A DNA stretch of 64,000 bases from contig JBBCJC010000005.1 in assembly GCA_037189525.1 (NCBI GenBank), positions 1,024,001 through 1,088,000 of the forward strand, read 5' to 3'. Within the stretch, counting starts at the first letter, position 1. The number at the start of each line of letters is the position of its first letter. Below, one piece after another: positions 9,993 to 27,396 of this stretch. The position numbers and the translations under genes are program-made. The DNA comes from Gemmatimonadales bacterium. GTDB lineage: Bacteria > Gemmatimonadota > Gemmatimonadetes > Gemmatimonadales > GWC2-71-9. Under the pieces are notes generated by a model that saw nothing but the letters and a program-made list of their open reading frames with translations, ran no database searches and had not been told where the DNA came from.

Positions 9993-10021
9993 TGGGGGTA
10001 GCCTGCCGGTTCGATCGTCTA
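9993..10021 (+). promoter_or_regulatory. ECF-type promoter of the leu operon (copy 1)
   Basis: TGGGGGTAGCCTGCCGGTTCGATCGTCTA; 25/29 identical to the copy at 22022-22050(-); GGGGTA-N15-CGTCTA. Confidence 0.7.
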
Positions 10022-10031
10022 GTATACTGAT

Positions 10032-10142
10032 ATGGTGAACACGCTCAATCACTCCCCCCGACTTATTAGCGTCGTCGGACTGGCCGCAGGGCTCCTCCTT
10101 GCGGTCATTCTTCTCGTCGTTATCGGGACGGGCTGGGTTTAG
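10032..10142 (+). CDS. Leu/Ile/Val-rich attenuator leader peptide of the leu operon
   Basis: MVNTLNHSPRLISVVGLAAGLLLAVILLVVIGTGWV* (36 aa, below the ORF-track cutoff); followed by hairpins and a terminator. Confidence 0.8.
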   Translation: MVNTLNHSPRLISVVGLAAGLLLAVILLVVIGTGWV

Positions 10143-10159
10143 CGCACCATCAAAACCCC

Positions 10160-10234
10160 TGCCCCTCCGAGGTGATCCGGACAGGGGCAACGCAACACGA
10201 CGCGAGGCTCCTTCCGATGGAAGGGGCCTTTTTT
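10160..10234 (+). terminator. leu attenuator: alternative hairpin plus intrinsic terminator
   Basis: Terminator AGGCTCCTTCC-GAT-GGAAGGGGCCT-TTTTT (10205-10234); upstream GCCCCTCC can pair with the terminator 3' arm or with AGGGGCA (10183-10189). Confidence 0.8.
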
Positions 10235-10265
10235 CATTGCTCGCGTCGTGAGGCTGAAAAGGGTC

Positions 10266-10553
10266 ATGCGCCACACCGTCAATCTGCTCGTCGAAGAGTT
10301 GCCTGCCGCCCTCCGGCGGACCGCCGATTTCCTGGGTGAGAGCCCCCTTCGACTCGAGCACCTGACCCTTACGCTCGGACGTCCCGCCCGTCTGACGGCG
10401 GTCTTTGCCCCGAATGCAGCCACCGCCGCAGTCGATCGGTTTGCCCAGGCCGTGGGTGGGCGCCCGATCTCGAACGAGGCGACACCGGCAGACACGAGAC
10501 CGGCCCCGTTTCATTGGCAAGCCGACGGCGCGGGAGACGAACATGTCGGCTGA
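10266..10553 (+). CDS. Small ACT-like domain protein, first gene of the leu operon
   Basis: HTVNLLVEELPAALRRTADFL resembles the ACT beta1-alpha1 of IlvN/H; stop overlaps the leuA start. Confidence 0.5.
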   Translation: MRHTVNLLVEELPAALRRTADFLGESPLRLEHLTLTLGRPARLTAVFAPNAATAAVDRFAQAVGGRPISNEATPADTRPAPFHWQADGAGDEHVG

Positions 10554-11748
10554 GCCTCCGGTCCCGGTCGTCCAGATTTTCGATACGACGTTGCGCGACG
10601 GCGAACAGGCCCCCGGATGCACGCTGCAGCCCGAATCCAAGATTGCTGTGGCACGTCAGCTCGCCCGCCTGGGCGTGGACATCATCGAAGCCGGCTTTCC
10701 CGCCGCCTCCGACGCGGAGTGGCGGGCCATCAAGACCATCGCCACCTCGTTCGGATCAAAAGGGCCAACCGTCTGCGGCATGGCCCGCGCCATCGAGTCC
10801 GACGTCGACCGGGCAGCGCAGGCATTGCGACCCGCCGCCCGACCCAGAATCCATACCTTCCTGGCAACCTCCGATATCCACCTCGAACACAAGCTCCGCA
10901 TGACCCGAGCGGCTGCCCTCGAACGGGTCGCCTCGATCGTGCGATATGCGCGGAACCAGGTTTCGGAAATCCAATTCTCACCCGAGGACGCGACCCGCTC
11001 CGACCGCGATTTCATGTTTGCGGTCCTCGACTGCGCCGTCGAGTCCGGCGCCACGATCCTCAATATCCCCGACACCGTCGGCTACGCAACGCCCGATGAA
11101 TACGGCAACCTGATCGACGCCGTCGTTTCCCGCTACGCCTCGGCAGGCGTCACCGTTTCGGTCCACTGCCACGACGACCTGGGTCTCGCCGTCGCCAATA
11201 CCATTGCGGGCATCGCCGCCGGTGCACGGCAAGCGGAATGCACCATCAACGGCATCGGAGAACGCGCCGGCAATGCGGCGCTCGAAGAAGTCGTGATGGC
11301 GCTGCGTACCCGGCAGGATCGCCTCAGGCTCGACACCAGGATCGAAGCACGGGAACTGGTTCGTGCCTCACGCCTGGTCGAGCGACGAACCCGGATTCAG
11401 GTCCCGCCCAATAAGGCGGTGGTCGGCCGGAACGCTTTTGCGCACCAGTCGGGAATCCATCAGGCGGGCGTGCTCCGCCATCGCGCCACCTATGAGATCA
11501 TGACCCGGGAAAGCGTCGGGTTCGACCGGGAATCCATCGTGCTCGGTAAGCATTCGGGCCGCCATGCCCTCCGCGCCCGGCTCGAGCGGCTGGGCGTGGT
11601 CCTCGACGACGAGACCCTCGATCAGGTTTTCCCGCGCTTCAAAGCGGTTGCCGATACCAAGCGTACCGTTTCGGATCGGGATCTACGCGACCTGCTCGCC
11701 GCCGCCAACCTCGAGTCCGCCGATGAGGTGGCCGCGCATGCCGGTTGA
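10543..11748 (+). CDS. leuA: 2-isopropylmalate synthase, short form (no C-terminal regulatory domain)
   Basis: [39 protein letters not shown]; ends at ~401 aa. Confidence 0.93.
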
Positions 11749-13192
11749 TCCGACACCGAACCATCCCCGCACCCTGGTCGAAAAGATCTGGGACCGGCAT
11801 ATCGTCGTGCCGGAACGGGATGATACGCCGGCCGTGCTATATGTGGATCTCCATCTGATCCATGAGGTCACGTCGCCACAGGCGTTTGCTGCGCTGGCTG
11901 CGCGCGGACTACGGGTGCGCAGCCCCGACCGGACCATCGCAACCGCCGACCATTCGATCCCGACGTTACCCGGAACCCACGCCGGCACGCTGCCGATCGC
12001 CGACTCGGCCGCCCGCGCCCAGGTCGATCGTCTCACCACCAACTGCCGCGAGTACGGTATCCGCCTCTACGGGCAGGGTCACGGTCAGCAGGGCATCGTC
12101 CATGTGATCGGCCCCGAGCAGGGCTTCACGCAGCCGGGCATGACCATCGTGTGCGGCGACAGCCATACCAGTACCCATGGAGCTCTGGGCGCGCTCGCGT
12201 TCGGCATCGGCACCTCCGAGGTGTCGCACGTGCTGGCCACCCAGTGCCTGTTGCAGCGCAAGCCGCGCTTCATGGAGGTGCGCATCGAAGGCGCCCTCCC
12301 GCCTGGCATCGCTGCAAAGGACGTGATCCTCGCCGTGATTGCCCAGGTCGGCGTGGCCGGCGGTGCCGGACATGTCTTCGAGTATCGCGGCCGAGCCGTC
12401 GAAGCTCTCACGGTCGACCAGCGACTCACCCTCTGCAACATGTCGATCGAAGCCGGCGCCCGCGCAGGTCTGGTCGCGCCGGACGACACGACGTTCGAGT
12501 ATCTGAGCGGACGCGCCGAAGCGCCCAAAGGCGCCGCATGGGATACTGCCCTGGCCCGATGGCGCACGCTTCCGAGCGATGATGGCGCGCGCTGGGATCG
12601 CTCCGTCACGATCGATGCCGCGCGTCTCGCCCCCATGATCACCTACGGGACCACACCGGCGATGGCCATGCCGATCGATTGGGCCATTCCCGAACCGGAC
12701 CAGCTGCCGAACCATGCGGACCGGCAGGCGGTGTCTCAGGCGCTCCGCTATATGGCGCTCCAGCCCGGCCGCCCGCTGATCGGCCATCCGGTCGACGTCG
12801 TGTTTGTGGGAAGCTGCACCAACTCGCGGATCGACGATCTGCGTGATGCGGCCCGCCTGGTGCGCGGACGATCGGTTGCAAACGGTGTGCGGATGCTGGT
12901 CGTGCCAGGTTCGCAGGAAGTGAAGCGCGCCGCCGAAGCGGAAGGCCTCCACCACACCTTCATCGGCGCGGGCGCCGAGTGGCGGGAACCCGGGTGCTCG
13001 ATGTGCATCGCGATGAACGGCGACATGCTCGAGCCTGGGCAATACGCCGTCAGCACCAGTAACCGGAACTTCGAAGGTCGCCAGGGACGCGGCAGCCGCA
13101 CCTTCCTCGCCAGCCCCGCCACCGCCGCGGCCGCAGCCGTGACCGGCCGGGTCACCGATCCGCGCACCTTGCTGGAAGGACGATTCTCATGA
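11738..13192 (+). CDS. leuC: 3-isopropylmalate dehydratase large subunit
   Basis: [46 protein letters not shown]. Confidence 0.97.
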
Positions 13193-13776
13193 CGCGATGG
13201 ACGTCCCCCTGGACCGGTCGGGCCACGTTACTGGCCGCGGATGATGTCGACACGGACCAGATCATCCCCGCGCGCTTTCTCAAAGCCACCACGCGCGACG
13301 GGCTCGGTGCCCACCTGTTTGCCGACTGGCGCAATCAGGCCGACGGCACGCCGAAGTCCGACTTTCCGCTCAATCGCCCTGGCGCTGCCAGCCGGCCTAT
13401 CCTGGTCGCGGGGCGGAACTTCGGCTGCGGCTCGTCCCGCGAGCATGCTCCCTGGGCACTCACCGATTTCGGCATCAGCGCCATCGTAGCGAAATCGTTT
13501 GGCGACATCTTCCGCTCGAACGCGCTCAAGAACGGTCTGCTCCCGATTGCCATCGACGGTGACGACTGGGCCGCAATGGCCCAGACGCTGGAGCAGGCGC
13601 CCGAGACGGAGCTCACCGTCGATCTGCCAGCTCGGCAGCTTCGCATCGGCACCTGGTCTACCACCTTTCCCATCGACCCTTTTGCCCGTTTCTGCCTGAT
13701 CGAGGGCGTCGACGAACTCGGCTTCCTGCTGCAGCAGGAGGCGGCTATCCAGGCATTCGAGGAACAGCACGTATGA
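13189..13776 (+). CDS. leuD: 3-isopropylmalate dehydratase small subunit
   Basis: [34 protein letters not shown]. Confidence 0.97.
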
Positions 13777-14879
13777 AGGCCACCATCGTGACCCTGCCGG
13801 GCGACGGCATCGGCCCGGACGTAACGGCGGAAGCAATCCGGATCCTCTCGACGGTTGCTGATCTGTTCGGGCACCAGTTCTCGTTCGAAAGCGCTCTGAT
13901 CGGCGGCGCCGCCATCGACACGACCGGCACCGCACTCCCGAGCGCCACACTCGACGCTTGCCGCGCATCAGACGCCGTCCTGCTCGGCGCGGTCGGCGGC
14001 CCGCAGTGGGATGCGCCCGATGCGGTCGTTCGACCCGAGCAGGGTCTGCTGGCCCTCCGGAAGGGGCTCTGCGTCTTTGCCAATCTGCGCCCGGTCCGCG
14101 TCGCCGATTGCCTCGCCGACCGATCGACGTTGCGTCCCGAGGTGGTCCGCGGCGTCGACCTCGTCGTGGTGCGCGAACTGACCGGCGGAATGTACTTCGG
14201 CGACAAATCGCGCGGCCCCGGTGAGGGCGGACAGGAGGCCATCGACGTCTGCCGCTACTCCACGGCCGAGATCGAACGTGTGGCGCGACGAGCCGGCCAG
14301 TTGGCGCGCAGCCGGCGGGGTCGGCTCGCCTCGGTCGACAAGGCCAACGTCCTCGAGACCTCCCGGCTCTGGCGTGAAACGGTGACGCGCGTCATGGCGG
14401 AGGAATTTCCCGACCTGATCGTCGAGCACGTCCTGGTGGACGCCTGCGCCATGCATCTGATCCGGAACCCCGGAGGGTTCGATGTCATCCTCACGGAAAA
14501 TCTGTTCGGCGACATCCTGACCGACGAGGCCGCGATGCTGGCCGGGTCGATCGGCCTGCTCCCGTCGGCATCGCTTGGTGCGCCCGGGTCGCCCGGGCTG
14601 TTCGAACCGATCCACGGGTCCGCGCCGACCCTTGCCGGCCGCGATCTCGCCAATCCGTACGGCGCCATCCTCTCCGCCGCCATGCTGCTCCGGCACGGCC
14701 TCGCCCTCGACGCCGAGGCAGACGCCGTCGAACGCGCCGTCGAACAGGCCTGGGTCACCGGCTTCATACCGGCCGACCTGACGGATTCGTCGACCGCCCC
14801 ATATGGAACCCGAGCCATCGGCAGCGCGGTTGCTGCGCTCCTGTCGGAGGCCGCCACCCCCGCCACGACCGCCAGGTGA
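13773..14879 (+). CDS. leuB: 3-isopropylmalate dehydrogenase
   Basis: [43 protein letters not shown]. Confidence 0.97.
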
Positions 14880-15421
14880 GTGAGGACAGTTTGTTACAGC
14901 GTTTGCAGGACTCCGACCGGACCGCATTCGACGAGATCGTCCGCTCCCATGATGCTCGGCTCCGAGCCGTTGCGCATCGCGTCGTCGGATGCCCCGACAC
15001 CGCGGCGGAGGTGGTTCAGGACGTGTTCTTTCGCCTCTGGCGCGACCGCAGCACCATCGAGATTCGCGATCACCTGGGTGGCTATCTCGCACGCGCCGTG
15101 CGGAATCGCGCCCTCGACCGTCAGAAGCGCCTGCGACTCGAGTATCGCTGGCTCGAACGGGAAGTGATGGAAACCGAACAGGCCGAGATCGAACGGATCG
15201 CCGGCAGCCTGACCGACTCGGCAGGCCACGATCGTAGCAGTCAGTTGATGCAGGCGCTGGACCAGCTGCCGGAACGTCGCAGGGAGATCATGCTGCTCCG
15301 GTGGCGGGAGGGCCTCAGCTACAACGAGATCGCCTCTCGACTCGGGCTCTCCGTCAAAACGGTGGAGAACCAGATCAGTCGCGGACTCAAAACGCTCCGT
15401 GCGCTTCTGATGCCCGACTGA
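14876..15421 (+). CDS. ECF sigma-70 factor, translationally coupled to leuB, no adjacent anti-sigma
   Basis: Region 2 [13 protein letters not shown]...[12 protein letters not shown]; region 4 [29 protein letters not shown] overlap with the leuB stop. Confidence 0.92.
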
Positions 15422-15509
15422 AGCTGCTGCCGTTTGCGGCCTGGTCGGATCGCTGGGGCCGGAGGCGCGTCTGTATCTCCCCACGGAAGGGCCAGAGGCA
15501 TCACGCCTG

Positions 15510-16991
15510 CTACGGTAGCGCAAGAACGACCGCCAGCCGATGACTGGTGACGCGCAGTCCGTCCATGGCAAGCTTGGTGGACGGCGCCGCAATAACACCA
15601 GGGGGATCCAAGACCGTGACATCATCGCCGCCATCGATCAGGCCGAAGTCGAACAGGTTGCCCAGCCGAGTTGCCGTGACGCGCCCGCGATAGTGAAGGT
15701 CGACCCGCCCCAGCCGAAGGGTGACCCCCCAGGAGGGCGTCCACTCGACCCATCGCTCCTGCTGCGACCGATCCACGCCGGACAGATAGTTTCGCTGCTC
15801 CAGATCGTAGTTCACCGAGTACGCCGAAAGACCGAAACGGACCGTTGCGAGGCTACCGTCCGTACCGAGCGGAATTCGGTGAGCTGAGCCAGCCCGAATC
15901 ACGACATTGTGGAACCGGAAACGATTGTCGACGGTTCTCCCGCCGGCCGGAATGACCCTACCCCCTGCCGATGGCACGTCTGTCTCCGCTTCGCCCCAGG
16001 TATGACTGCGAACCGGCTCGAAGACGAACTCGATCCCGGCATCCGACCGCGGCCCATTGTTCCAGAGTCCGAGGCCGAGATTGAAGGCGCTCGTATTCCC
16101 CGGATCTCGTGGGATGTTCTGGAGGACATAGTTGGGAATCTTCGGGTGCCACATCAAGTTCGATGTCGCAATCGCACCGATATGCCAGCGCGTGTCCGGC
16201 AGCGGCTGGCGATACCGCAGGTGCGCACCCCAGACCTCGGTCTGATCGTCGTTCGTCTCCAATCGTGGGACCAGGGCGCCGGCGCGGACTTCCGGGAACA
16301 CCACATCGTGCGACGCCTTGAAACGATTGTGGAGGACCACGGCATCCAGGGTCCGTCCGCCCCACCATTTGGTCATTCCGAGGCGGGCATCGAGCTGGTC
16401 ACCGCGATGCTCGATCCGGTAGCTACCTGCGTACAACAGGTCCACGCCATGAACCCACTGCAGGTCGCTCGCCTGCAAGCGGAAACCGACGGCCAGTTCC
16501 TGCTCTACGAACTGACGGCCAACCGAGGCAGTGAGATATTTGTTACGTCGAGATGGATGGGACGCCGAGAGGAGAAAGCCCCGGTCCAGACAACCCTGAC
16601 AGGCCACTGGCAAGGAGCCACCGACCCACTCGGCATCGACATCCTGCACGGCAACCCCGACGGCGGCAAACCAGGCCCCAAACGAGAACAACCCGCCAAT
16701 CGGGAGCGACGACCCCTGACCCGTGGAACCAAGCACCCGATCGAAGCCGGGAGACAGAAATACCTGCTTGCCCCGGATCATGGCGCCGCGAGCCGGGTTG
16801 ACGAAGGGATCGCGCAGCGAGTCGTCGACGGCGATCGCGAGATCGCCCATCGCCGCATTGAACGACGGGAACAAATCGAACTGATGATGCCTCGGCACCG
16901 GCACTGACCGGACCGAGATCAATTGAGCATGGGCCGGCCCCCCCGGTATCCCGAGCAGCACGACAAGCAGAGCAAGCAGGCGAAGCGCCAT
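15510..16991 (-). CDS. Hypothetical exported, probable outer-membrane beta-barrel protein
   Basis: Signal peptide ending AHA-Q; FVNPARGA motif and alternating aromatic beta-strands. Confidence 0.65.
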   Translation of the reverse strand: MALRLLALLVVLLGIPGGPAHAQLISVRSVPVPRHHQFDLFPSFNAAMGDLAIAVDDSLRDPFVNPARGAMIRGKQVFLSPGFDRVLGSTGQGSSLPIGGLFSFGAWFAAVGVAVQDVDAEWVGGSLPVACQGCLDRGFLLSASHPSRRNKYLTASVGRQFVEQELAVGFRLQASDLQWVHGVDLLYAGSYRIEHRGDQLDARLGMTKWWGGRTLDAVVLHNRFKASHDVVFPEVRAGALVPRLETNDDQTEVWGAHLRYRQPLPDTRWHIGAIATSNLMWHPKIPNYVLQNIPRDPGNTSAFNLGLGLWNNGPRSDAGIEFVFEPVRSHTWGEAETDVPSAGGRVIPAGGRTVDNRFRFHNVVIRAGSAHRIPLGTDGSLATVRFGLSAYSVNYDLEQRNYLSGVDRSQQERWVEWTPSWGVTLRLGRVDLHYRGRVTATRLGNLFDFGLIDGGDDVTVLDPPGVIAAPSTKLAMDGLRVTSHRLAVVLALP

Positions 16992-17070
16992 GGAGTTCCC
17001 CCCATTGGATCTCCGCCAAGCTAGCTCTTTCGTCACCGCGCCACAGTGACGGCCCTCACACTCACCGCCA

Positions 17071-18120
17071 TCAGGCCACGGCGCCCACTGGTCTGCTGGC
17101 GGCATTGGCGGTCAGGAACCGCATCATCTGCCGGAGCCGTGCCCCCACGACCTCGATCTGATGTTCACCCTGACGCCGTCGTTCGGCCAACAGCCGAGTC
17201 CGACCGGACCGATGCTCCGCGAGCCACTCCCGGCTGAACTGCCCGCTGCGCACTTCGGCCAGAATCGCGCGCATCGTGTCGCGGGTCCGCTCGTCGACCA
17301 CCCGTGGGCCAGCCACGTAGTCGCCATACTCCGCGGTGTCGGAGACGGAGTACCGCATCAGACCCAGCCCGCCCCGGTACATCAGGTCGACGATCAACTT
17401 GAGTTCGTGCAGACACTCGAAGTACGCAACCTCCGGCTGGTAGCCCGCTTCCACCAGGGTGTCGAATCCCGCCTGCACCAGCGCCGTTACACCGCCGCAG
17501 AGTACGGCCTGCTCACCAAAAAGGTCCGTCTCCGCTTCCTCGGCAAAGGTCGTGAGCAGGACACCCGCGCGGGTGCATCCGATCGCCTTGGCATACGCCA
17601 GTGCATCGGCCAGCGCGCTCCCAGACGCATCCGCTTCCACCGCGACCAGCGCCGGGACGCCTTCCTCGCTCACAAACAGCTCGCGCAGACGGTGACCGGG
17701 ACACTTCGGCGCCACCAGACTGACATCGACGCCTTTCGGAGCCTGGATCTCGCCGAACCGCACGCTGAACCCGTGCGCAAACATCAGGGTTTGTCCGGGC
17801 CGTAGGTGGGGCTCGATTTCGCGCTCGTAGAGGGCGCGCTGATCCGGATCGGGCACCAGCACCATGATGATCGACGCCGATCGGGTCGCGTCCGCGGTGG
17901 TCGCCACCTCGAGCCCGGCCGATCGCGCCAGATCCCAGCGCGGCGATCCGGGGCGCAAACCGACGACGACCTCGACGCCGCTGTCCGCCAGGTTCTGGGC
18001 ATGCGCGTGCCCCTGGCTCCCGAACCCGATCACCGCCACCCGCCGGCCGCGCAGACGGGACAGGTCGGCATCCTGATCGTAAAACAGCGTCGGCCCGGTG
18101 ACTTCAGGCGGCTTCGTCAT
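17071..18120 (-). CDS. ilvC: Ketol-acid reductoisomerase
   Basis: [43 protein letters not shown]. Confidence 0.97.
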
Positions 18121-18370
18121 GAAGGATCTCCTCGATATCCGTTTGAGAAAGAACGTCGATCAGCCGGGCCAACTGGCGCCGGACCTGATCATGATTGGCA
18201 CTCGTGATCGTCAGCATGAGACGACTGCGCTCGATTCGCTCCGCCGGGTGCACCGCAAATCCTTCGACGTTCACCCGGCGGCGCCGCAACAGACCGATGA
18301 CCCGCTCCAGACCGAGCAAGCCGCCACCCACGCTGACCAGATAGGTTCGTTTGGATAGAGTTTTCATCAC
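18104..18370 (-). CDS. ilvN: Acetolactate synthase small (ACT-only) subunit
   Basis: [17 protein letters not shown]...[10 protein letters not shown]; lies between ilvB and ilvC. Confidence 0.75.
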
Positions 18371-20088
18371 ACCACCTCCACGGCAGGCCCGATCATGGCA
18401 TCGATGGCTGCGCCAGGAGGCACCATCGGAAAGACGTTGGCTTCCCGCTCGACCCGGAAGTCGATCAGCACCGACCCACGGACCCCGCTCACATGATCGA
18501 GGACCGAAGCCAATTCCTCGGTATGCTCGACAGCCACGGCCTCGAGGCCATACGAACGGGCCAGAGCGGGAAAATCAGGACCGGACAGCGGCGTCCCGGA
18601 GTAGCGCCGGTCATGGAAGAGCTGCTGCCACTGCCGCACCATGCCCAGGTACCCATTATTGATGACGGCAATGCGGAGGTTGCAAACGCCCTCCTGAACC
18701 ACGGTCGCGAGCTCCTGATTGGTCATCTGAAATCCTCCGTCGCCGACGATGGCCCAGACCGTGGCATCCGGACGCGCGATTGCCGCGCCCAGCGCTGCCG
18801 GCACCGCAAACCCCATCGTACCCGCGCCTCCACTGGTCAGTTGCGTACCTGGCGTGTGCCATGAGAGCCACTGCGCCGCCCACATCTGATGCTGGCCGAC
18901 ATCGGAGACGACTAGCACCGGCTCACCTCCCTGCCACGCAGCATCCAGTGCCCGATAGACCTCCCGAGGGGGCAACGTCCCGCCAGGTCCGGCGTTCTCT
19001 TCCGAACGCCCGCGAGCAACTGCCGTCCCCTCGATTTCCTGCAACCAATCCGAATCACGCCGAACTGGAGCCTGCTCGAGCATCGATTCGAGCACGCTGC
19101 GCGCGTCGCCCACCAGCTCGATTGCGGTTGGGATCGTCTTCCCGATCTGCGAGGGCTCGATATCGAGGTGGATGACAGTTGCGCGCGGAGCAAAGCGCGC
19201 GGCGGGGCCGGTTACCCGATCGTCGAAGCGTGCGCCGATCGAAAAGAGCACGTCGCACGTTTGCAGCGCACGGTTGACCGCAACCGAGCCGTGCATCCCC
19301 GCCAGGCCAATCGAGAGACGATGCTCCTGCGGAATCGCCCCGAGACCGAGCAGCGTCGTGGCCACCGGCAGATCCATCCGCTCCGCGAGCGCGACGACCT
19401 GCCGTGCCGCACCGGACTGAATCACCCCGTGCCCTGCAAGCACGACCGGTCGTTTACCCTGGGCCAACAGCGCAAGCGCTTCCTGGAGGAAGCGTGCGCC
19501 GGGAACCGGCGACCGGCTCCGCTCGACCGCAGCTCGGGATATCAGACGGTCGGTGGACGGACGAGATTGCGCCCGGCCCTGCTGCGCATCTTTCGTGATA
19601 TCGAGCAGCACAGGCCCCGGCCGGCCCTCGGTGGCAATTCGAATCGCCTCCGACACGGCATCCTCGATTTCATCGGCTGCGCACACCAACCGGCTGTGCT
19701 TGACGATCGGCAGGGTGATCCCGATGATGTCGATTTCCTGGAACGCATCCGTACCAAGCAGATGGCTCGGCACCTGACCGGTGATTGCCAGGAGCGGGGT
19801 CCCATCCATCCAGGCGTCGGCAATCGGTGTCACCAGGTTGGTTGCCCCGGGCCCGCTGGTCGCAATGCAGACCCCGATCCGCCCGCTGGCCCGCGCATAT
19901 CCCTGCGCCGCATGACCGGCCCCCTGCTCGTGCCGGCACAATACGTGGCGAAGACCGGCATCCGGCGCACCCAGCGCGTGGTAGAACGGCATGATGGCGC
20001 CGCCCGGGATACCGAAGACCACCTCGACCCCATGCCTGCGTAGCGCTCGGCACAGCAACTCGGCGCCGGTCAGCGTGTCGCCAGCCAT
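18367..20088 (-). CDS. ilvB: Acetolactate synthase large subunit
   Basis: [29 protein letters not shown]...[12 protein letters not shown]. Confidence 0.96.
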
Positions 20089-21797
20089 GCATCCTCCGAA
20101 GGCTGCGGTGCAGGTACAGCGCCAAGCACCGCACCGTCGCTCGCGCTGCCGACCAGGGCCGCGTAGCGCGCCAGCCATCCTCGCCGCGGCATGGGACGGT
20201 CGGAACGGGCCGCCGGGCGCGCAGCAAGCAAAGCTTCACCCCCATCGATATCGATGCGGTGAGACGAGAGATCAATCCGGACCACGTCGCCATCCACCAG
20301 ACGACCGATCGGACCGCCGACCGCCGCCTCCGGACTGATGTGACCGACACAAAACCCACGTGTGCCACCCGAGAACCGGCCATCGGTGATCAACGCGACC
20401 GACGTCGACAGCGGCGACCCCTTGAGGAAGCTGGTCAGCGCAAGCATCTCCCGCATGCCGGGCCCGCCGCGCGGACCTTCGAATCGCACCACTACGACGT
20501 CGCCGGGCTGGATGACACCCGATCGCGCAGCCTCCAGCGCATCTTCTTCGCTCTCGAACACGCGGGCCGGCCCCGCAAACCCTTTGCACCCGGGTTCCAG
20601 CGCACCGGTCTTGATCACCGCGCCATCCGGTGCGAGGTCCCCAAACAGGATCTCCAGCCCACCCGTTCTGGAATGCGGCTCGTCGATCGTACGAACGGCT
20701 CCGTTGCCAGGGCGATCGACCGACTCGAACCGGCTTCGAAGTGGTTCGCCGCTGATGGTCATGGTATCCGGCTCGACCAAACCGGGCTCACGCGACAGTT
20801 CGGCCAGCACGGCGCTGACGCCGCCGGCCAGATGGAGATCCTCGATATGCCACTGCCGATTGCCATCCCAGGCAGGCGCAAGCTTGGCAAGGTGTGGCGT
20901 CCGTCGCGCCACCTGATCGAAGCGGGCCATCGGATACGGGATCTCGGCCTCGCGCGCCAGAGCGAGCAGGTGGAGCACCGTGTTCGAGGACCCGCCAAGC
21001 GCCGCATCCAGCGCCACCGCGTTATCGAGCGACGCCGCCGTCACCACGTCGCGAAAGCGTCGCCCCTCCCGCACTGCCGCGAGCAACGCCTCCGCCGAGC
21101 GGCTCAACAATCCTCGACGCTCATCCGAGATCGCCAGCGCGGTACCGCTGCCGGGCAACCCGAGGCCGAGCGCTTCGACGATGCAGTTCATCGAGTTGGC
21201 GGTGAACATGCCGCTGCAACTGCCACAGGTCGGACAAGCGGAGCGTTCGAGGTCCAGCAGGTCCGCATCATCGATCCGTCCCGCGGCATGCGCGCCAACT
21301 CCTTCGAACACCGAGACTAAGTCGATCGCCTGGCCAGTCCGGCTTCGTCCGGCTTTCATCGGACCACCCGAGACGAACACAGTGGGCAGATCGACGCGCG
21401 CCGCCCCCATCAGCATCCCGGGGACGATCTTGTCACAGTTGGGCAGGCAGATGAGTCCATCGAAACAATGCGCGGCAACCATGGTCTCGACGGCGTCTGC
21501 AATCAGTTCACGCGAAGGCAGCGAATACCGCATACCCTCGTGGCCCATCACGATCCCGTCGTCGACACCGATGGTATTGAACTCGAACGGAATCCCGCCG
21601 GCGGCACGGATCGCCTCTTTGACCAGGCGGCCGAATTCCTGGAGATGGGTGTGCCCCGGGACGATCTCGACGTAGGAATTACAGACGGCAATGAAGGGCC
21701 GCTCGAAATCGGCCTCGCTCTGGATCGCGCCCGTGGCGCGCAGCAGACTGCGATGGGGCGCGCGCGAAGCCCCACGCTTGATACGGTCCGACAACAT
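20070..21797 (-). CDS. ilvD: Dihydroxy-acid dehydratase
   Basis: [35 protein letters not shown]. Confidence 0.97.
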
Positions 21798-21835
21798 GAC
21801 TGAGCCTCGGAGAGCCGGAGCTCCCGGAAACGCGA

Positions 21836-21902
21836 ACGGCCCCTCCGATATCTCCGAGAGGGGCCGTGTCGACTGCTCACCCCTCCCGAAACCGGGGAGG
21901 GG
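21836..21902 (-). terminator. ilv attenuator hairpins
   Basis: Minus strand CCCCTCCC/GGGAGGGG hairpin (21880-21902), then ACGGCCCCTC...GAGGGGCCGT stem (21836-21867) with a weak U tail. Confidence 0.65.
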
Positions 21903-21916
21903 ACTGGCTCGCTACG

Positions 21917-22015
21917 TTAGCACAAGCTCGTCTCCGCTCCCCATTGGCCAATGCCAACGACGAGTCCGACGACGAGAATGATGACGGCACCAAGCCGGGC
22001 GCGAATGACGTTCAT
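21917..22015 (-). CDS. Ile/Val/Leu-rich attenuator leader peptide of the ilv operon
   Basis: MNVIRARLGAVIILVVGLVVGIGQWGAETSLC* (32 aa); ATG lies 6 nt after the CGTCTA element. Confidence 0.8.
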   Translation of the reverse strand: MNVIRARLGAVIILVVGLVVGIGQWGAETSLC

Positions 22016-22021
22016 GTCCAA

Positions 22022-22050
22022 TAGACGATCGAACCGGGCCGCAACCCCCA
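22022..22050 (-). promoter_or_regulatory. ECF-type promoter of the ilv operon (copy 2)
   Basis: TGGGGGTTGCGGCCCGGTTCGATCGTCTA, same 15-nt spacer as copy 1. Confidence 0.7.
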
Positions 22051-22058
22051 TCCGATCA

Positions 22059-23222
22059 CTACGGGACAATCATGACCCCGGCTCGGCCGCCAAACGAATC
22101 CTCGGTGGTCGATAGCCCGGCAGGAACCTCCAACGACTGGCCATCGACGCGCAGATTGATCAGGTAGACTCCTGACATGAGCCTTAAATGAGCTTCCCAG
22201 CCCTCCGAGCGGCGAACCATGGGAACCGGTTGCCAGGCGGAAAAGTCGCCCACCAACTCCACCTGCACCGCGCTCGGATGGCGAACCCGGATCAGCTGTC
22301 CTTCGGGCAGGGCCTCGAGCTCGAAGCTGGCGACTCGGGCAGCGGGAGACACCGCCGTATCGCGACGCGCAGCGCGACGGCCGCGGTCGACCAACGACAG
22401 GCCGAACGACAACTGACGCGTAAACGGGAGGTAGACGCTGGGACCAGCCGGCGCTCGGCCGGCCGAGAAATGCACGCGGATACCGGCCCACGGTTCGACC
22501 GCCGCGCCGAGCTGCCACCCGCCCCGTCCCCCCGCGGCTCCGGCGCTGACCTCGGCGAGCGGCGAGCGCCGAATCATGCGACCGGACAACTCGAGCACCC
22601 CCAGCGAGAACTGTCCATCGACCAAAACATGGCTGAACGCCTTCGGCTTGCCCCCGGCGGGTGGGACCGGTGTCATCAGCGAGTCCCCAACCGGTAGGCT
22701 GCCTGCGCGATCGCGGGATCCACCAAGTCCGGCAAAGCGACCGAGTTCGCCGGCCAATCGCATCCGCCCGAGAATCAGCCGCGCAGTCGTGATGCCGCCG
22801 ACCGAGGAGCCCGGAGCTCCCACATACGCAGCAGCGCCCGCGCCAGCGCTGAATCCTCCGCGGCGGATCATCAGTCCCAACCCATTGAGCCACTCGCCGT
22901 CGAGACCACCGTGAAGTCGCCGTTCCAGAACCCCACGACCATCGACAAACGCAGCCAGCCCGCGCCCAACCCCACGCTCCCAGCGAACCGCACCGAACGC
23001 CTCGCCACTCCAGGAGCCGTGGGTCGCCGGCGCTCCCGATGCCGAGAGGTCGAGCAGCATCGACGGCCGCTCGCTGCGGAGCTGGCCACCCAGCCAGACC
23101 GCCGGCCCGTTCCAGCCCCAGGCACGATCCAGCAACCGGGTACGTGCCGTCAGCGCGACCTCGTCCTGCGCAGCGAGAGGAGCCACACCGAGGAGGATCG
23201 CCAGCAGCACCCGGGTCCTCAT
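22059..23222 (-). CDS. Exported beta-rich protein with C-terminal CBM48/AMPK-type glycogen-binding domain
   Basis: Signal peptide; VELVGDFSAWQPVPM...GVYLINLRVDG...DSFGG. Confidence 0.75.
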   Translation of the reverse strand: MRTRVLLAILLGVAPLAAQDEVALTARTRLLDRAWGWNGPAVWLGGQLRSERPSMLLDLSASGAPATHGSWSGEAFGAVRWERGVGRGLAAFVDGRGVLERRLHGGLDGEWLNGLGLMIRRGGFSAGAGAAAYVGAPGSSVGGITTARLILGRMRLAGELGRFAGLGGSRDRAGSLPVGDSLMTPVPPAGGKPKAFSHVLVDGQFSLGVLELSGRMIRRSPLAEVSAGAAGGRGGWQLGAAVEPWAGIRVHFSAGRAPAGPSVYLPFTRQLSFGLSLVDRGRRAARRDTAVSPAARVASFELEALPEGQLIRVRHPSAVQVELVGDFSAWQPVPMVRRSEGWEAHLRLMSGVYLINLRVDGQSLEVPAGLSTTEDSFGGRAGVMIVP

Positions 23223-23821
23223 GGCAGGCCCCGATTGACCGTCAGGCGAGTCACTTCGGCGCGGACCGTCGGCAGTACGCCGGCGCCGTCCCGCACCGCC
23301 GCGGCCACCTGATCGCGCAACGACAGAAATCCGGCATCGGACAAACGCGCCGAAAAGAGGCGACCCAAGGCATCGGTGGCTTCGTCGGGCGGCCACCCCT
23401 TGCCCAGCAACTCCGCAGCAACCGCGACCGGCACAGCCACCCCTCGTCCTCCCGCCGACCGATGGACTTGGGCCAGGTGTGCCTCGTTGCCGCCCGATCG
23501 AAGCCAGAGCACGCCGGCCTGCAGTTCCTCAGCCGACGCACCTGCCCCGAGCCCGCGCCGGGCCCGCGCCAGGTCGCCCAAGAGCGCAGCAACCGCGGCC
23601 GCGATCCGATCGCCGGTGGCGCCCTTGGTCTGGCCTTCGAGAGCTTTCTGGATCAGCGGCTCGGTGGGCAACCCGATCCGGCGGGCGGAATCGGTCAGTT
23701 GATCCACTGCCCGGACAGTGACGGCATCGAGCCGGCTTCGCAGCCGGGGATCCTGCGCTTCGAGCCGAGCCGAGCAGGCCACAACCAGCACGATCAGCGC
23801 GCCAATCAATCGCGTCGTCAT
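23219..23821 (-). CDS. Hypothetical exported helical protein
   Basis: Signal peptide; ARRIGLPTEPLIQKALEGQTKG; coupled to both neighbours; paralog at 63391-63963. Confidence 0.7.
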   Translation of the reverse strand: MTTRLIGALIVLVVACSARLEAQDPRLRSRLDAVTVRAVDQLTDSARRIGLPTEPLIQKALEGQTKGATGDRIAAAVAALLGDLARARRGLGAGASAEELQAGVLWLRSGGNEAHLAQVHRSAGGRGVAVPVAVAAELLGKGWPPDEATDALGRLFSARLSDAGFLSLRDQVAAAVRDGAGVLPTVRAEVTRLTVNRGLP

Positions 23822-24282
23822 TGGACCGTCACCATCGAAACCGACTGGCCATAGTCACTGTCGACCGAGAACGGTTGCTGCGGATCGGCTAGCCAGCGCC
23901 GCCCGTCGACGAGAAACGCGTAGTGATAGACGCCGCCGGCCAACACGACCCGGGCACTCCATCGGGTGCCATCCGCGCTACGCATCAGGGGCGTCCTGGC
24001 CCGATCCCAATCGTTGAAATCGCCGACGACGGTTACCGCGGAGGCCGCCGGGAGATCGATGGCAAACTCGACCTCGGTGCCGGGCGCCGGCGCGCGCAGC
24101 AGCTGCGCAGCGCCGGCCAGTGCAAGCGCGACCACACCGAGCCCTGCCCCGAACCCAGCCCACCGGCGACGCCGCACCGAGCGGCGGACGGCACCGAGTA
24201 CCCGCCGGTCGAAGTCCGCGTCGCTTCCGGCCGACGAACGGAGTTCGGCCGAGACGCGCTCGAGCCACTGTTGATCGCTCAT
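23818..24282 (-). CDS. Putative anti-sigma factor: TM helix + CBM48-like domain
   Basis: DFDRRVL, TM segment, VTVVGDFNDW...GVYHYAFLVDGRRWLADP; overlaps the sigma stop. Confidence 0.75.
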   Translation of the reverse strand: MSDQQWLERVSAELRSSAGSDADFDRRVLGAVRRSVRRRRWAGFGAGLGVVALALAGAAQLLRAPAPGTEVEFAIDLPAASAVTVVGDFNDWDRARTPLMRSADGTRWSARVVLAGGVYHYAFLVDGRRWLADPQQPFSVDSDYGQSVSMVTVQ

Positions 24283-24809
24283 ACGGACTCTCCCAGCAGA
24301 TCGCGCATCCGCCCGCAGGCACGGCTGACGCGCATCTTGAGTGCCGCGACCGACGCCCCCGTGATGGCGCTCATCTCGTGATAGCTCAGATCGTCGACGT
24401 GCTTGAGCAGGAACGCCTCCCTTTGCTCCGCGGTGAGCAGCGCGACGGCACGGTCGATCTCCTCGCGCCACGCCGCGCCCGCCGCCGGATGCGGTATCCC
24501 GACCTCCGCGGCCTGCTGCAGCCCGGAGATCCTGAGCCGCCACCAGCGCCGCCGGCGCGCCGCCGTCCGACACCGATTGACCACGATACGGTAGCTCCAG
24601 GCTCCGAATCGCTCCGGCTCGCACTGGGCCAGCGCCCGATGGACCCGCACGAAGGCGTCCTGGACAGCCTCCTCCGCATCTTCGTGCGAACCAAGCATAT
24701 GCCTGGCGTATCGGAGGAACCGGTCCCGATAGCGCGCGACGAGGACGGCAAAGGCGTCGAGGTCGCCTCGTCGGGCCTGGAGTACCAGGTCCACGTCAGA
24801 GGACGCCAC
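24279..24809 (-). CDS. ECF sigma factor (sigma-24-like)
   Basis: ARRGDLDAF, DAEEAVQDAFVR, WSYRIVVNRC, LSYHEMSAITG; probable GTG start. Confidence 0.92.
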   Translation of the reverse strand: MASSDVDLVLQARRGDLDAFAVLVARYRDRFLRYARHMLGSHEDAEEAVQDAFVRVHRALAQCEPERFGAWSYRIVVNRCRTAARRRRWWRLRISGLQQAAEVGIPHPAAGAAWREEIDRAVALLTAEQREAFLLKHVDDLSYHEMSAITGASVAALKMRVSRACGRMRDLLGESV

Positions 24810-25640: not shown

Positions 25641-25791
25641 AACTTCCCACGTCCCAACTTGCGACCCCCTTCCCTAGTGGAGCATCCAATGCTTGATATA
25701 CTTAGGGAGGTAGGGGCCCCTCAGGATGAGCGCCGCAGCCCCGACCGGCCCAGATCATCCGCCGGCGCACTATTTGGGACGTGGAACGCCT

Positions 25792-27396
25792 ATGTCCGTA
25801 CGTTCGTTGAATTGGCTCAAGTTCGGTGGCCTGGTGGCCTTTGCCTTCGTCATTGGCCTGCTGTTCGCCAGCCTCCTCGATGTTCCAACGACCAGCCTCG
25901 CCCAGGAGCGAAAACCAGTCACGGGCGAAGTCATTCAAGCCTCCAACCCTCAGTCCGCTGAACGGGTCGCCAACAGCTCGTCGGCCGCGTCGCTGATCAC
26001 CCTTTCCGATGCCTTTGCCGACGTGGCGGAAACGGTCCGGCCGAGTGTCGTGTACATCCGGGCCCGGCGGACCGAACGGGTCATCGATCAGCGCCGGGTG
26101 CCGCAGGGATTCGAGGAGTTTTTCGGGGTCCCCCGCAACCGGGGCCGTAACGAGCCGCAGGTCGAAACCGGATCGGGCTCGGGATTCGTCGTCTCGAAAG
26201 ACGGCTACATCCTGACCAATAACCACGTCGTCGATGGCGCCGACCAGGTCATGGTTCGGATGCTCGACCGGCGGGAATACCCGGCCAAGGTCATCGGGAC
26301 CGATCCGACCACCGACGTCGCCGTGATCAAGATCGAAGCCGCCCGCGGCACCACGCTCCGCCCGGTCCAGCTGGGTTCGAGCACCCGCTCCCGGGTCGGC
26401 GAGTGGGTCCTGGCCGTCGGGAACCCGCTCTCGGAGAACCTGAGCTTCACGGTCACCTCCGGCATCATCAGCGCCAAGGGGCGCGGTCAGTTGCCGCTGC
26501 CCGGCTGGTCCGAACGCTCGATCCAGGACTTCATCCAGACCGATGCGGCCATCAACCGTGGCAACAGCGGCGGCCCGCTGCTCAACGTCCGCGGCGAAGT
26601 GATCGGGATCAACTCCGCGATCTTCAGCCCGACCGGTGTCAGCGCCGGGTACGCCTTTGCGATTCCGATCGACCTGGCGCGCCAGGTGATGGACCAGCTG
26701 ATCTCCAAGGGTAAGGTCGAGCGCGCCGCACTCGGCGTGACGGTCACCGATGCGTCGCCGGAGGACGCGGAGTGGGCCGGACTCGACGGCGTCTACGGCG
26801 CCAAGATCAACGATTTCCCGCCCAACTCCCCCGCGCGGAACGCCGGGCTGCAACAGGGCGACATCGTGATCGGCATCGAAGGTCAGCGGGTCGAGTACGT
26901 GGCCCAGCTGCAGCAGCTGGTGGGCTTCCGGCGGGCCGGTGAATCGGTCAAAGTCGAGGTCGCGCGGAAGGGTGGTACCCGTCGCACCTTCGACGTCCGG
27001 CTGATCGGTCAGGACGCCACCGCGCCCGAAACCCAGGTCGCGGGTGGTACCGCCGAGCCCGGCAACAATGCCTCCTCGGTGCTGCGCGACCGGCTCGGGA
27101 TCAACGGCTCGGCCCTGTCGAGCGAGATGGCCCAGCAGCTCCGGCTGCCCGCGACGGCCAAGGGTGTCGTGGTCGAGTCGGTCGACCCCTATGGTCCGGC
27201 GGATGGCCTGCTGATCAGCGGCGGTCTGATCAACATCATTACGGCGGTCGAAGACAAGTCGGTCGGGACCGAGGCCGAGTTGAGCACGGTGCTCCGGTCC
27301 TACCCGCCGGGCACGGTGGTGTCGCTCAACGTGCTGCAGTACGGTCGGGGCGACGAACGGCCGACCACCAGGATCGTTCGGATCCGGCTCAAGTAG
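25792..27396 (+). CDS. degP: DegP/HtrA serine protease with two PDZ domains
   Basis: GSGSGF, LTNNHVV, DVAVIKI, QTDAAINRGNSGGPL. Confidence 0.93.
   Translation: MSVRSLNWLKFGGLVAFAFVIGLLFASLLDVPTTSLAQERKPVTGEVIQASNPQSAERVANSSSAASLITLSDAFADVAETVRPSVVYIRARRTERVIDQRRVPQGFEEFFGVPRNRGRNEPQVETGSGSGFVVSKDGYILTNNHVVDGADQVMVRMLDRREYPAKVIGTDPTTDVAVIKIEAARGTTLRPVQLGSSTRSRVGEWVLAVGNPLSENLSFTVTSGIISAKGRGQLPLPGWSERSIQDFIQTDAAINRGNSGGPLLNVRGEVIGINSAIFSPTGVSAGYAFAIPIDLARQVMDQLISKGKVERAALGVTVTDASPEDAEWAGLDGVYGAKINDFPPNSPARNAGLQQGDIVIGIEGQRVEYVAQLQQLVGFRRAGESVKVEVARKGGTRRTFDVRLIGQDATAPETQVAGGTAEPGNNASSVLRDRLGINGSALSSEMAQQLRLPATAKGVVVESVDPYGPADGLLISGGLINIITAVEDKSVGTEAELSTVLRSYPPGTVVSLNVLQYGRGDERPTTRIVRIRLK

Follow-up and report, generated by a model that had tools for sequence, protein, structure and literature searches.

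Extracytoplasmic function (ECF) sigmas act as regulators of envelope and stress responses that are held by anti-sigma factors, and amino-acid biosynthesis operons are read from housekeeping promoters. Both of these textbook rules appear to be broken together in the DNA that we describe here, a stretch of 64,000 nucleotides (the window) on contig JBBCJC010000005.1 of a Gemmatimonadales bacterium (positions 1,024,001 to 1,088,000; assembly GCA_037189525.1, G000 in our genome labels, 4,653,185 bases or 4.65 Mb, 98% complete). In the window, a leuACDB operon that ends in an ECF sigma gene faces a convergent ilvDBNC operon. From sequence comparisons, we think it rather likely that the leuB-linked sigma reads two ECF-type promoters, one ahead of each operon, and that each transcript then meets an attenuator built on a leader peptide rich in Leu, Ile and Val. 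The parts, an ECF sigma and leader-peptide attenuation, are known; their wiring is new. In a literature search that had subscription-only papers outside its reach, we found nothing that links an ECF sigma to leu or ilv genes or to leader-peptide attenuation.

Four kinds of described system come close. In the enterobacterial leu, ilvGMEDA and ilvBN attenuators, as is predicted for this locus, a short, amino-acid-rich open reading frame (ORF), alternative hairpins and a terminator precede the biosynthetic genes. The locus described here differs from them in its ECF-type promoter, in that the attenuated operon encodes its own candidate sigma, and in a leader ORF that is predicted to be leaderless or nearly so. 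According to the accessible text of one study, leader-peptide attenuators of leu/ilv-type operons are also described in Actinobacteria (PMC1262725).

The closest analogue in circuit logic is WhiB7/WblC of Actinobacteria, which, in the portion of the source open to us, combines attenuation dependent on an upstream ORF with positive autoregulation in a response to amino-acid starvation (PMC10274678). There, as in our proposal, the gene of a self-activating initiation factor lies behind a leader that is translated and a terminator that gates it. However, WhiB7 is an iron-sulphur protein that binds the primary sigma, lies outside any biosynthetic operon, serves a stress and resistance regulon, and has no sequence relationship to the sigma described here.

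ECF sigmas that work without an anti-sigma, under transcriptional control, are also on record: HrpL (ECF32), SigE of S. coelicolor (ECF39), SigH of P. gingivalis (ECF114) and sigma-AntA (ECF282) (PMC8999054, PMC7826278; accessible parts). These have no cognate anti-sigma, as seems to be true of the leuB-linked sigma, and the amount of sigma would be the point of control. Their regulators, however, are transcription factors, two-component systems or ClpXP; in these sources none of the four is said to be under attenuation, and the available text of PMC8999054 does not mention attenuation or a leader peptide.

Finally, FecI/FecR/TonB signalling (ECF239-243, with ECF240 of Bacteroidetes; Casas-Pastor 2021, PMC7826278, seen in part) shares with our locus a common family score and the GGGGT(A) and [T/C]GTC boxes. 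In contrast to those systems, the leuB-linked sigma has no FecR at position +1 and no receptor at +2, stands at the 3' end of leuACDB, and would have cytoplasmic, biosynthetic targets. The FecI-like family is described, in the same partial source, as not autoregulated (PMC7826278), whereas the leuB-linked sigma stands behind its own promoter type.

The leuB-linked sigma and the element shared by leu and ilv

The features on which the comparison turns are the following, the leu operon lying on the + strand and the ilv operon on the - strand.

9993..10021, + strand: leu promoter element; -35 box TGGGGGT at 9993-9999, 16-nt spacer, -10 box CGTCTA at 10016-10021; kept, by sequence, in relatives G005, G021 and G019
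10032..10142, + strand: leu leader ORF, 36 aa, of which 18 are Leu/Ile/Val; peptide kept in four genomes
10156..10188, + strand: hairpin before the leu terminator, whose 3' arm pairs alternatively with the terminator 5' arm (modelled antiterminator, from folding)
10204..10236, + strand: intrinsic terminator of the leu attenuator, a 12-pair stem followed by TTTTTT (terminator scan and folding)
14876..15421, + strand: ECF sigma gene, 181 aa; its GTG start overlaps the TGA stop of leuB (GTGA)
22022..22050, - strand: ilv promoter element; -35 box TGGGGGT at 22050-22044, 16-nt spacer, -10 box CGTCTA at 22027-22022
21917..22015, - strand: ilv leader ORF, 32 aa, of which 14 are Leu/Ile/Val
21880..21902, - strand: first ilv hairpin (CCCCTCCCC/GGGAGGGG); the modelled antiterminator joins its 3' arm to the 5' arm of the terminator
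21826..21865, - strand: terminator-like ilv hairpin with a weak U-tail, GTTCGCGTTTCC (folding; absent from the terminator-scan list)

The original prediction, made from the sequence alone, had placed an ECF sigma gene coupled to leuB at the end of the leu operon. This stands, and the start/stop overlap is kept in four genomes. The protein carries a Sigma70_r2 domain (residues 22-87) and a Sigma70_r4_2 domain (residues 123-174). It scores 95.5 bits against TIGR02937 (cut-off 42.9), which makes it an ECF (group IV) sigma, and 133.8 bits against TIGR02985 (curated cut-off 126.4), which places it in the FecI-like, Bacteroidota-type ECF family; the class follows the TIGR02985 cut-off rather than the hidden Markov models of ECF groups, and we give it no ECF group number. 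The gene is under purifying selection, with ratios of nonsynonymous to synonymous substitution (dN/dS) of 0.07, 0.07 and 0.21.

The two operons are headed, as had been claimed, by near-identical 29-bp elements. The leu and ilv copies match at 25 positions out of 29, and still at 25 when a thirtieth base is added; among 1500 random pairs of 250-nt genome segments none reached 25 matches, the maximum being 22. Exactly two matches to GGGGT-N16-CGTCTA occur in the whole assembly, both ahead of leu and ilv; the reversed control pattern also has two. When up to one mismatch is allowed, the window holds 3 matches, with 0.93 expected. Both copies of TGGGGGT-N16-CGTCTA stand 6-10 nt ahead of the leader ORFs.

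Housekeeping promoters are ordinary in this genome: a TTGnnn-N16-18-TAnnnT site lies upstream of 19 of its 58 tRNA genes, at most 120 nt away; the -35 box is often TTGACA, TTGACC or TTGACG, and one site reads TTGACC-N17-TATAAT. We see no TTGACn-N16-18-TAnnnT upstream of leuA or of ilvD over a span of 700 nt, and a consensus scan for sigma-70 sites returned none on the sense strand ahead of either operon and only one weak internal match. The leu and ilv operons are without a canonical sigma-70 promoter.

Relaxed genome scans for further regulon members returned only chance-like sites. One look-alike, kept in three genomes, was rejected as it lies inside the proC coding sequence. An ECF-type look-alike ahead of a CsbD-like stress gene (G000:C3:138275-138302, - strand; locus L257/L258) was rejected as a member as well, its GGGGG being found only in G000 and its -35 box reading GGAC in G005 and G021. 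Because the boxes in those two genomes are GGAC-N16/17-CGTC, the promoter of this gene is probably read by another ECF.

We searched 40 relatives of the same order (G001-G040). Orthologs of the sigma occur in three of them (G005 and G021 at 90% identity, G019 at 60%, the next best match being 41%), and all three come directly after leuB, their start codon overlapping its stop as GTGA or ATGA. The scan that the original prediction had proposed, for the motif and for leuB-sigma synteny, found the two together in four of four genomes, with the element at all eight leu and ilv leaders. Synonymous divergence (dS) between the sigma-bearing genomes is about 1. In the eight-site alignment, invariance is limited to GGGG, a single G of the spacer and TCGTCT; the rest of the spacer varies, and the conserved blocks are non-palindromic. 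Even in G019, where the ilv operon begins with ilvB and the Val/Leu-rich leader peptide is a different one, the element still reads TGGGGGT-N16-CGTCTA-N6-ATG.

Five relatives without the sigma (G024, G029, G031, G035 and locus L115) have homologous leu or ilv leader-peptide attenuators, and all five carry TTGAC[A/G]-N16-18-TAnnnT at the position of the element. Homologous operons that keep the motif without the sigma, the outcome named in advance as counting against the proposal, were not found among them. Since sigma-less relatives keep the attenuators behind ordinary promoters, the attenuators are old, and the promoter swap at the two operons and the insertion of the sigma gene are derived, together.

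Beyond these relatives, a scan of genome contigs returned only the 90% and 59% orthologs, all other matches being at most 43% identical; a metagenome scan gave no match to the sigma above 43%, and 400 genomes drawn across the phylum gave no further ortholog among the best 8 candidates scored per genome. The protein database contains more divergent clusters, of metagenomic origin, at 68, 62, 61, 60, 59, 57, 57, 55, 51 and 49% identity. As far as the collections show, the arrangement of the sigma with leu and ilv is restricted to a small sub-clade of uncultured Gemmatimonadota. Among members of the genus, this leuA and a leuB above the family cut-off are found only in the sigma-bearing genomes. 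Across the order, a leuB above the TIGR00169 cut-off was present in 7 of 41 sampled genomes and this type of leuA in 8 of 41; many relatives may be without leucine synthesis or have divergent enzymes.

Candidate target promoters and the partners of the FecI-like family

We surveyed paralogs of the sigma with 30-43% identity, drawn from genomes and metagenomes, at 157 usable loci. In 31 of these, GGGGT-N14-17-[CT]GTC lies 39-94 nt past the sigma gene, compared with 86 matches in 20000 random 180-nt windows of the same loci (0.43%). The motif sits between the sigma gene and fecR (loci among L066-L212); upstream of the paralog sigma genes themselves we found no motif of the GGGGT type. The next ORF after the motif was FecR in all 22 loci tested, and in 19 of these fecR starts 7-17 nt past the -10 core, the same geometry as that of the leu and ilv leader ORFs. 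With such spacing fecR would therefore be near-leaderless.

The 31 sites give the consensus (A/G)T(A/G)GGGGTA-N14-TTGTCAT, in short form GGGGTA-N15-[T/C]GTC, which on sequence grounds is a candidate target-promoter consensus for the large Bacteroidota-type FecI-like ECF family. Eight of the 11 closest paralogs (41-43% identity) carry the motif, and the other three read TGGGGGC-N15-CATC. The accessible part of the 2021 ECF classification gives no conserved predicted promoter motif for ECF240 (PMC7826278), and we found no mention of the GGGGT motif in the accessible parts of its supplement or of the Bacteroidetes literature searched.

All eight leu and ilv sites match this family promoter, as GGGG[T/G]-N15/16-CGTCT. 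Because the same two boxes recur between sigma gene and fecR at the 31 paralog loci, we take the leu/ilv element to be a target promoter of the FecI-like family. Classification of the sigma and comparison with the promoter of its class, the first check that had been suggested, thus bear the proposal out in both boxes. Within the family, the sigma-4.2 helix SVKTVENQ is common, and region 4.2 does not discriminate between motif-positive and motif-negative paralogs (66% versus 62% identity to the leuB-linked sigma).

The partner typical of the family is missing from the neighborhood of the leuB-linked sigma. It had been claimed that no anti-sigma adjoins the gene, and we find leuB on its upstream side and a convergent ORF without FecR on the other, with no FecR at +1 and no TonB-dependent receptor at +2. 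In G005 and G021, the gene next after the sigma encodes a major facilitator superfamily (MFS) transporter, not FecR. A cognate anti-sigma elsewhere in the genome had been named as a possible objection. There are five FecR matches in the assembly, four beside other sigmas and a fifth on the foreign-looking contig C9, and no orphan FecR was found in this 98%-complete assembly.

Contig C9 (29,446 bases) has a G+C content of 0.61, versus 0.66, and carries proteobacterial-looking genes. Its FecR-domain protein sits between a histidine kinase and a response regulator, and an AraC-type regulator and an autotransporter-like protein are encoded on it as well. C9 is probably contamination of the bin.

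Leader peptides, predicted attenuators and operon genes

The original prediction of Leu/Ile/Val leader peptides and hairpins behind both elements is upheld, with a textbook terminator in leu and a weak U-tail in ilv. The leu leader ORF encodes MVNTLNHSPRLISVVGLAAGLLLAVILLVVIGTGWV, in which Leu, Ile and Val make up 18 of 36 residues, and the ilv leader ORF encodes MNVIRARLGAVIILVVGLVVGIGQWGAETSLC, with 14 of 32; the two peptides share VVGL. As the leu leader ORF starts 10 nt after CGTCTA and has no Shine-Dalgarno sequence, we predict that it is near-leaderless; the ilv leader ORF, which starts 6 nt after CGTCTA, is predicted from its position to be leaderless. A similar spacing occurs upstream of ilvD in the sigma-less G029 (locus L039), where the ilv leader ORF begins 7 nt past a TAAGCT -10 box; therefore, leaderless leader peptides seem to occur in the order with ordinary promoters too.

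The 12-bp hairpin and T-run of the leu leader were detected by the terminator scan, and the ilv leader forms two G+C-rich hairpins. Both leaders fold better than shuffled sequences (z = -4.4 for leu and -3.0 for ilv), and their hairpins are conserved among the sigma-bearing genomes (four leu and three ilv sequences aligned), with one compensatory pair in the G019 leu leader, in the hairpin before the terminator. An Rfam search of the leaders matched no family.

To model the effect of a ribosome on these structures, we cut the transcript after the terminator 5' arm and masked a ribosome footprint of 30 nt. With the ribosome on codons 10-20 of the ilv leader, the terminator 5' arm is paired with a probability (P) of 0.70-0.82, which falls to 0.32-0.59 at codons 24-33. 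In the leu leader, P stays at 0.7-0.8 for the majority of ribosome positions through codon 28, dipping to 0.48-0.55 at codons 20-21, and the arm is released at codons 31-37, the end of the ORF (P 0.36-0.43). Folding of the truncated transcripts thus fits classical attenuation in this model.

Past the attenuators, gene identities from NCBIfam and Pfam are leuA, leuC, leuD, leuB and the ECF sigma on the + strand, and ilvD, ilvB, ilvN and ilvC on the - strand:

10266..10553, + strand: 95-aa ACT-like ORF, the first gene past the attenuator; 11-nt overlap with the leuA start
10543..11748, + strand: leuA, 401 aa; the LeuA_dimer regulatory domain is missing from its C-terminal end
11738..13192, + strand: leuC (NCBIfam/Pfam)
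13189..13776, + strand: leuD (NCBIfam/Pfam)
13773..14879, + strand: leuB (TIGR00169, 459.8 bits)
20070..21797, - strand: ilvD (NCBIfam/Pfam)
18367..20088, - strand: ilvB, start set at the ATG behind GGAGG
18104..18370, - strand: ilvN, short form, 88 aa with one ACT domain
17071..18120, - strand: ilvC (NCBIfam/Pfam)
15510..17105, - strand: 531-codon ORF after ilvC, no Pfam or NCBIfam match

Small subunits of this type usually have 160 aa, and the single ACT domain of the 88-aa IlvN corresponds to their first half. The 531-codon ORF has an internal signal-peptide-like start, MALRLLALLVVLLGIPGGPAHAQ; the same gap in G005 and G021 is occupied by the MFS transporter gene, which lies downstream of the sigma and on its strand.

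The 95-aa ORF is conserved (dN/dS 0.17-0.35): each of the four genomes with the sigma has it in its leu operon, and it is absent from the five sigma-less leu/ilv loci examined. It has a weak profile match in the PDB to 2pc6_A, an acetolactate synthase small subunit (E=0.019), and its AlphaFold2 model has a beta-alpha-beta-beta-alpha fold for which the top, weak Foldseek matches are ACT domains; hhalign against the IlvN of the same locus found no similarity. PF08502 (LeuA_dimer) has no match in G000, whereas all 14 control genomes were positive. Judging from these models, the 95-aa protein may be a trans-acting, amino-acid-sensing subunit. Because LeuA is without a regulatory domain of its own, the 95-aa protein would more simply be a regulatory subunit for LeuA or for acetolactate synthase. 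A predicted complex of the sigma with the 95-aa protein scored 0.31 against a mark of 0.32, was run without controls, and counts neither way.

A second, unrelated ECF sigma gene lies 2 kb upstream of the ilv promoter (24279-24809, - strand). It heads an operon (22059-24809, - strand) in which the sigma is followed by a 155-aa CBM48/AMPK1_CBM membrane protein, likely an anti-sigma, by a 200-aa ORF and by a 445-aa CBM48-like protein. The operon ends 11 nt ahead of the ilv -35 box, and a DegP/HtrA-like protease gene (25726-27396, + strand) is divergent from it.

The proposed circuit, its alternatives and its meaning

We propose the following circuit. RNA polymerase carrying the leuB-linked sigma would start about 6-8 nt past CGTCTA, producing a leaderless or near-leaderless leader ORF. 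With ample charged tRNA-Leu, tRNA-Ile and tRNA-Val, the ribosome would reach the end of this ORF, the upstream hairpin and the terminator would form, and little leuACDB-sigma or ilvDBNC mRNA would be made. A ribosome stalled on the run of Leu, Ile and Val codons would lead instead to sequestration of the terminator 5' arm and to read-through. Read-through of the leu leader would yield more sigma and raise initiation at both promoters, a positive feedback that would couple the leucine signal to the ilv genes, which supply the leucine precursor. The sigma itself would have descended from the FecR-controlled sigmas of cell-surface signalling. Because no FecR is linked to it, the amount of sigma, set by attenuation, would be the main control. 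Each in-silico check that was run, namely the family promoter, the co-occurrence, the sigma-less relatives and the FecR search, supports the sigma-driven, attenuation-gated interpretation first put forward in the original prediction.

Several observations weigh against this circuit. The match to the family promoter is imperfect: the spacer is 16 nt in seven of the eight leu and ilv sites and 15 nt in 30 of the 31 family sites, and the -10 box begins with C in the former and with T in 28 of the 31 family sites (C in 3). The four sigma-bearing genomes form one sub-clade, so that the co-occurrence of sigma and motif has a single evolutionary origin, not four. On the RNA side, a search of sequencing runs listed no RNA run that covers this stretch; the ilv hairpin is strong but its U-run is poor and was not listed by the terminator scan, and covariation is thin (5 of 66 pairs in four leu sequences and 0 of 66 in three ilv sequences). 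When full-length leaders are folded at equilibrium, the terminator nearly always wins, and masking a ribosome footprint gave no antiterminator except at leu codons 14-15; the antiterminator appears only in the truncated, kinetic-style folding model. The circuit would also be problematic to restart if the sigma were purely autoregulated and had no basal promoter; basal expression might come from leak through the attenuator or from read-through that enters from the operon upstream of ilv. Four FecR-coupled FecI-like sigmas of G000 share the sigma-4.2 helix and might also read the element. Finally, the activity of E. coli FecI requires FecR, and an orphan of the family could likewise need a partner.

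A bolder version of the proposal is tentative, and we think it rather doubtful as a whole. In it, an anti-sigma-free descendant of a surface-signalling ECF has captured a whole pathway of primary metabolism, and its sole input is the ribosome stalled on Leu, Ile and Val codons. The leu attenuator would then be the 'anti-sigma' of a self-amplifying and possibly hysteretic starvation switch that drives the leu and ilv operons together. Sensing of amino acids may come from the ACT-like 95-aa protein encoded alongside, since the allosteric domain of LeuA is lost.

The alternative that survives best, though we consider it unlikely, keeps the leuB-linked sigma as the reader of both promoters and has an unlinked partner mainly set its activity, with attenuation as one of two gates. 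Candidates for this role include a fragment of a pro-sigma, an anti-sigma from some other class, proteolysis and the 95-aa protein. The habits of the family speak for it: the closest non-ortholog of the sigma (L063) belongs to a sigma-FecR-TonB receptor unit, and FecR is the next ORF in every paralog locus tested. So does the 95-aa ORF, which accompanies the sigma in all four leu operons and is missing from the five sigma-less loci. However, no orphan FecR was found in the assembly, the 95-aa protein is more simply a subunit of LeuA or acetolactate synthase, and no result points to any partner.

It is quite improbable that another ECF reads the promoters, whether the one upstream of ilv or any of the four FecR-coupled paralogs, and that the leuB-linked sigma has other targets. 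Candidates are plentiful, with 34 matches to the ECF model in G000, 31 of them above the family cut-off; the SVKTVENQ helix is common to the family, and the operon of the second ECF ends close to the ilv -35 box. Yet orthologs of the second ECF, at 59-72% identity, occur in members of the genus that lack the cluster, and none was found in G005, which has both motif sites. None of the four FecR-coupled paralogs exceeds 36% identity to the leuB-linked sigma, and no motif of the GGGGT type was found near their genes in G000. The distribution of the motif is matched only by the leuB-linked sigma, whose own operon the motif precedes.

We give hardly any credence to the notion that the 29-bp element is a repressor or activator operator, or a relic of leader duplication, with the sigma gene a passenger: although the 3' half of the spacer (CCGGTTCGAT) is kept in five of the eight sites, more than a promoter needs, and the shared VVGL means that the leader peptides may be paralogous, only two separated, non-palindromic blocks are invariant, no other promoter is present at either operon, the element takes the place that a TTGACA/TAnnnT promoter has in relatives, its two boxes recur before fecR, and the sigma is under strong purifying selection.

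The reading in which the leuB-linked sigma serves both promoters also makes sense as circuit logic: a shortage of leucine, registered by the leu leader, would lead to more sigma and thereby to more initiation at ilv, whose enzymes make the precursor. The comparative series shows a route by which such rewiring can be achieved, with two promoter swaps and one gene insertion. There is a practical side as well: synthetic circuits use orthogonal parts of this type, a compact ECF without a linked anti-sigma and with a defined, genome-unique promoter. If our reading is true, the leuB-linked sigma would be the first of the ECFs to be dedicated to a pathway of core biosynthesis and the first to have its level set by leader-peptide attenuation, and the WhiB7 circuit would have a natural counterpart made with a sigma factor.

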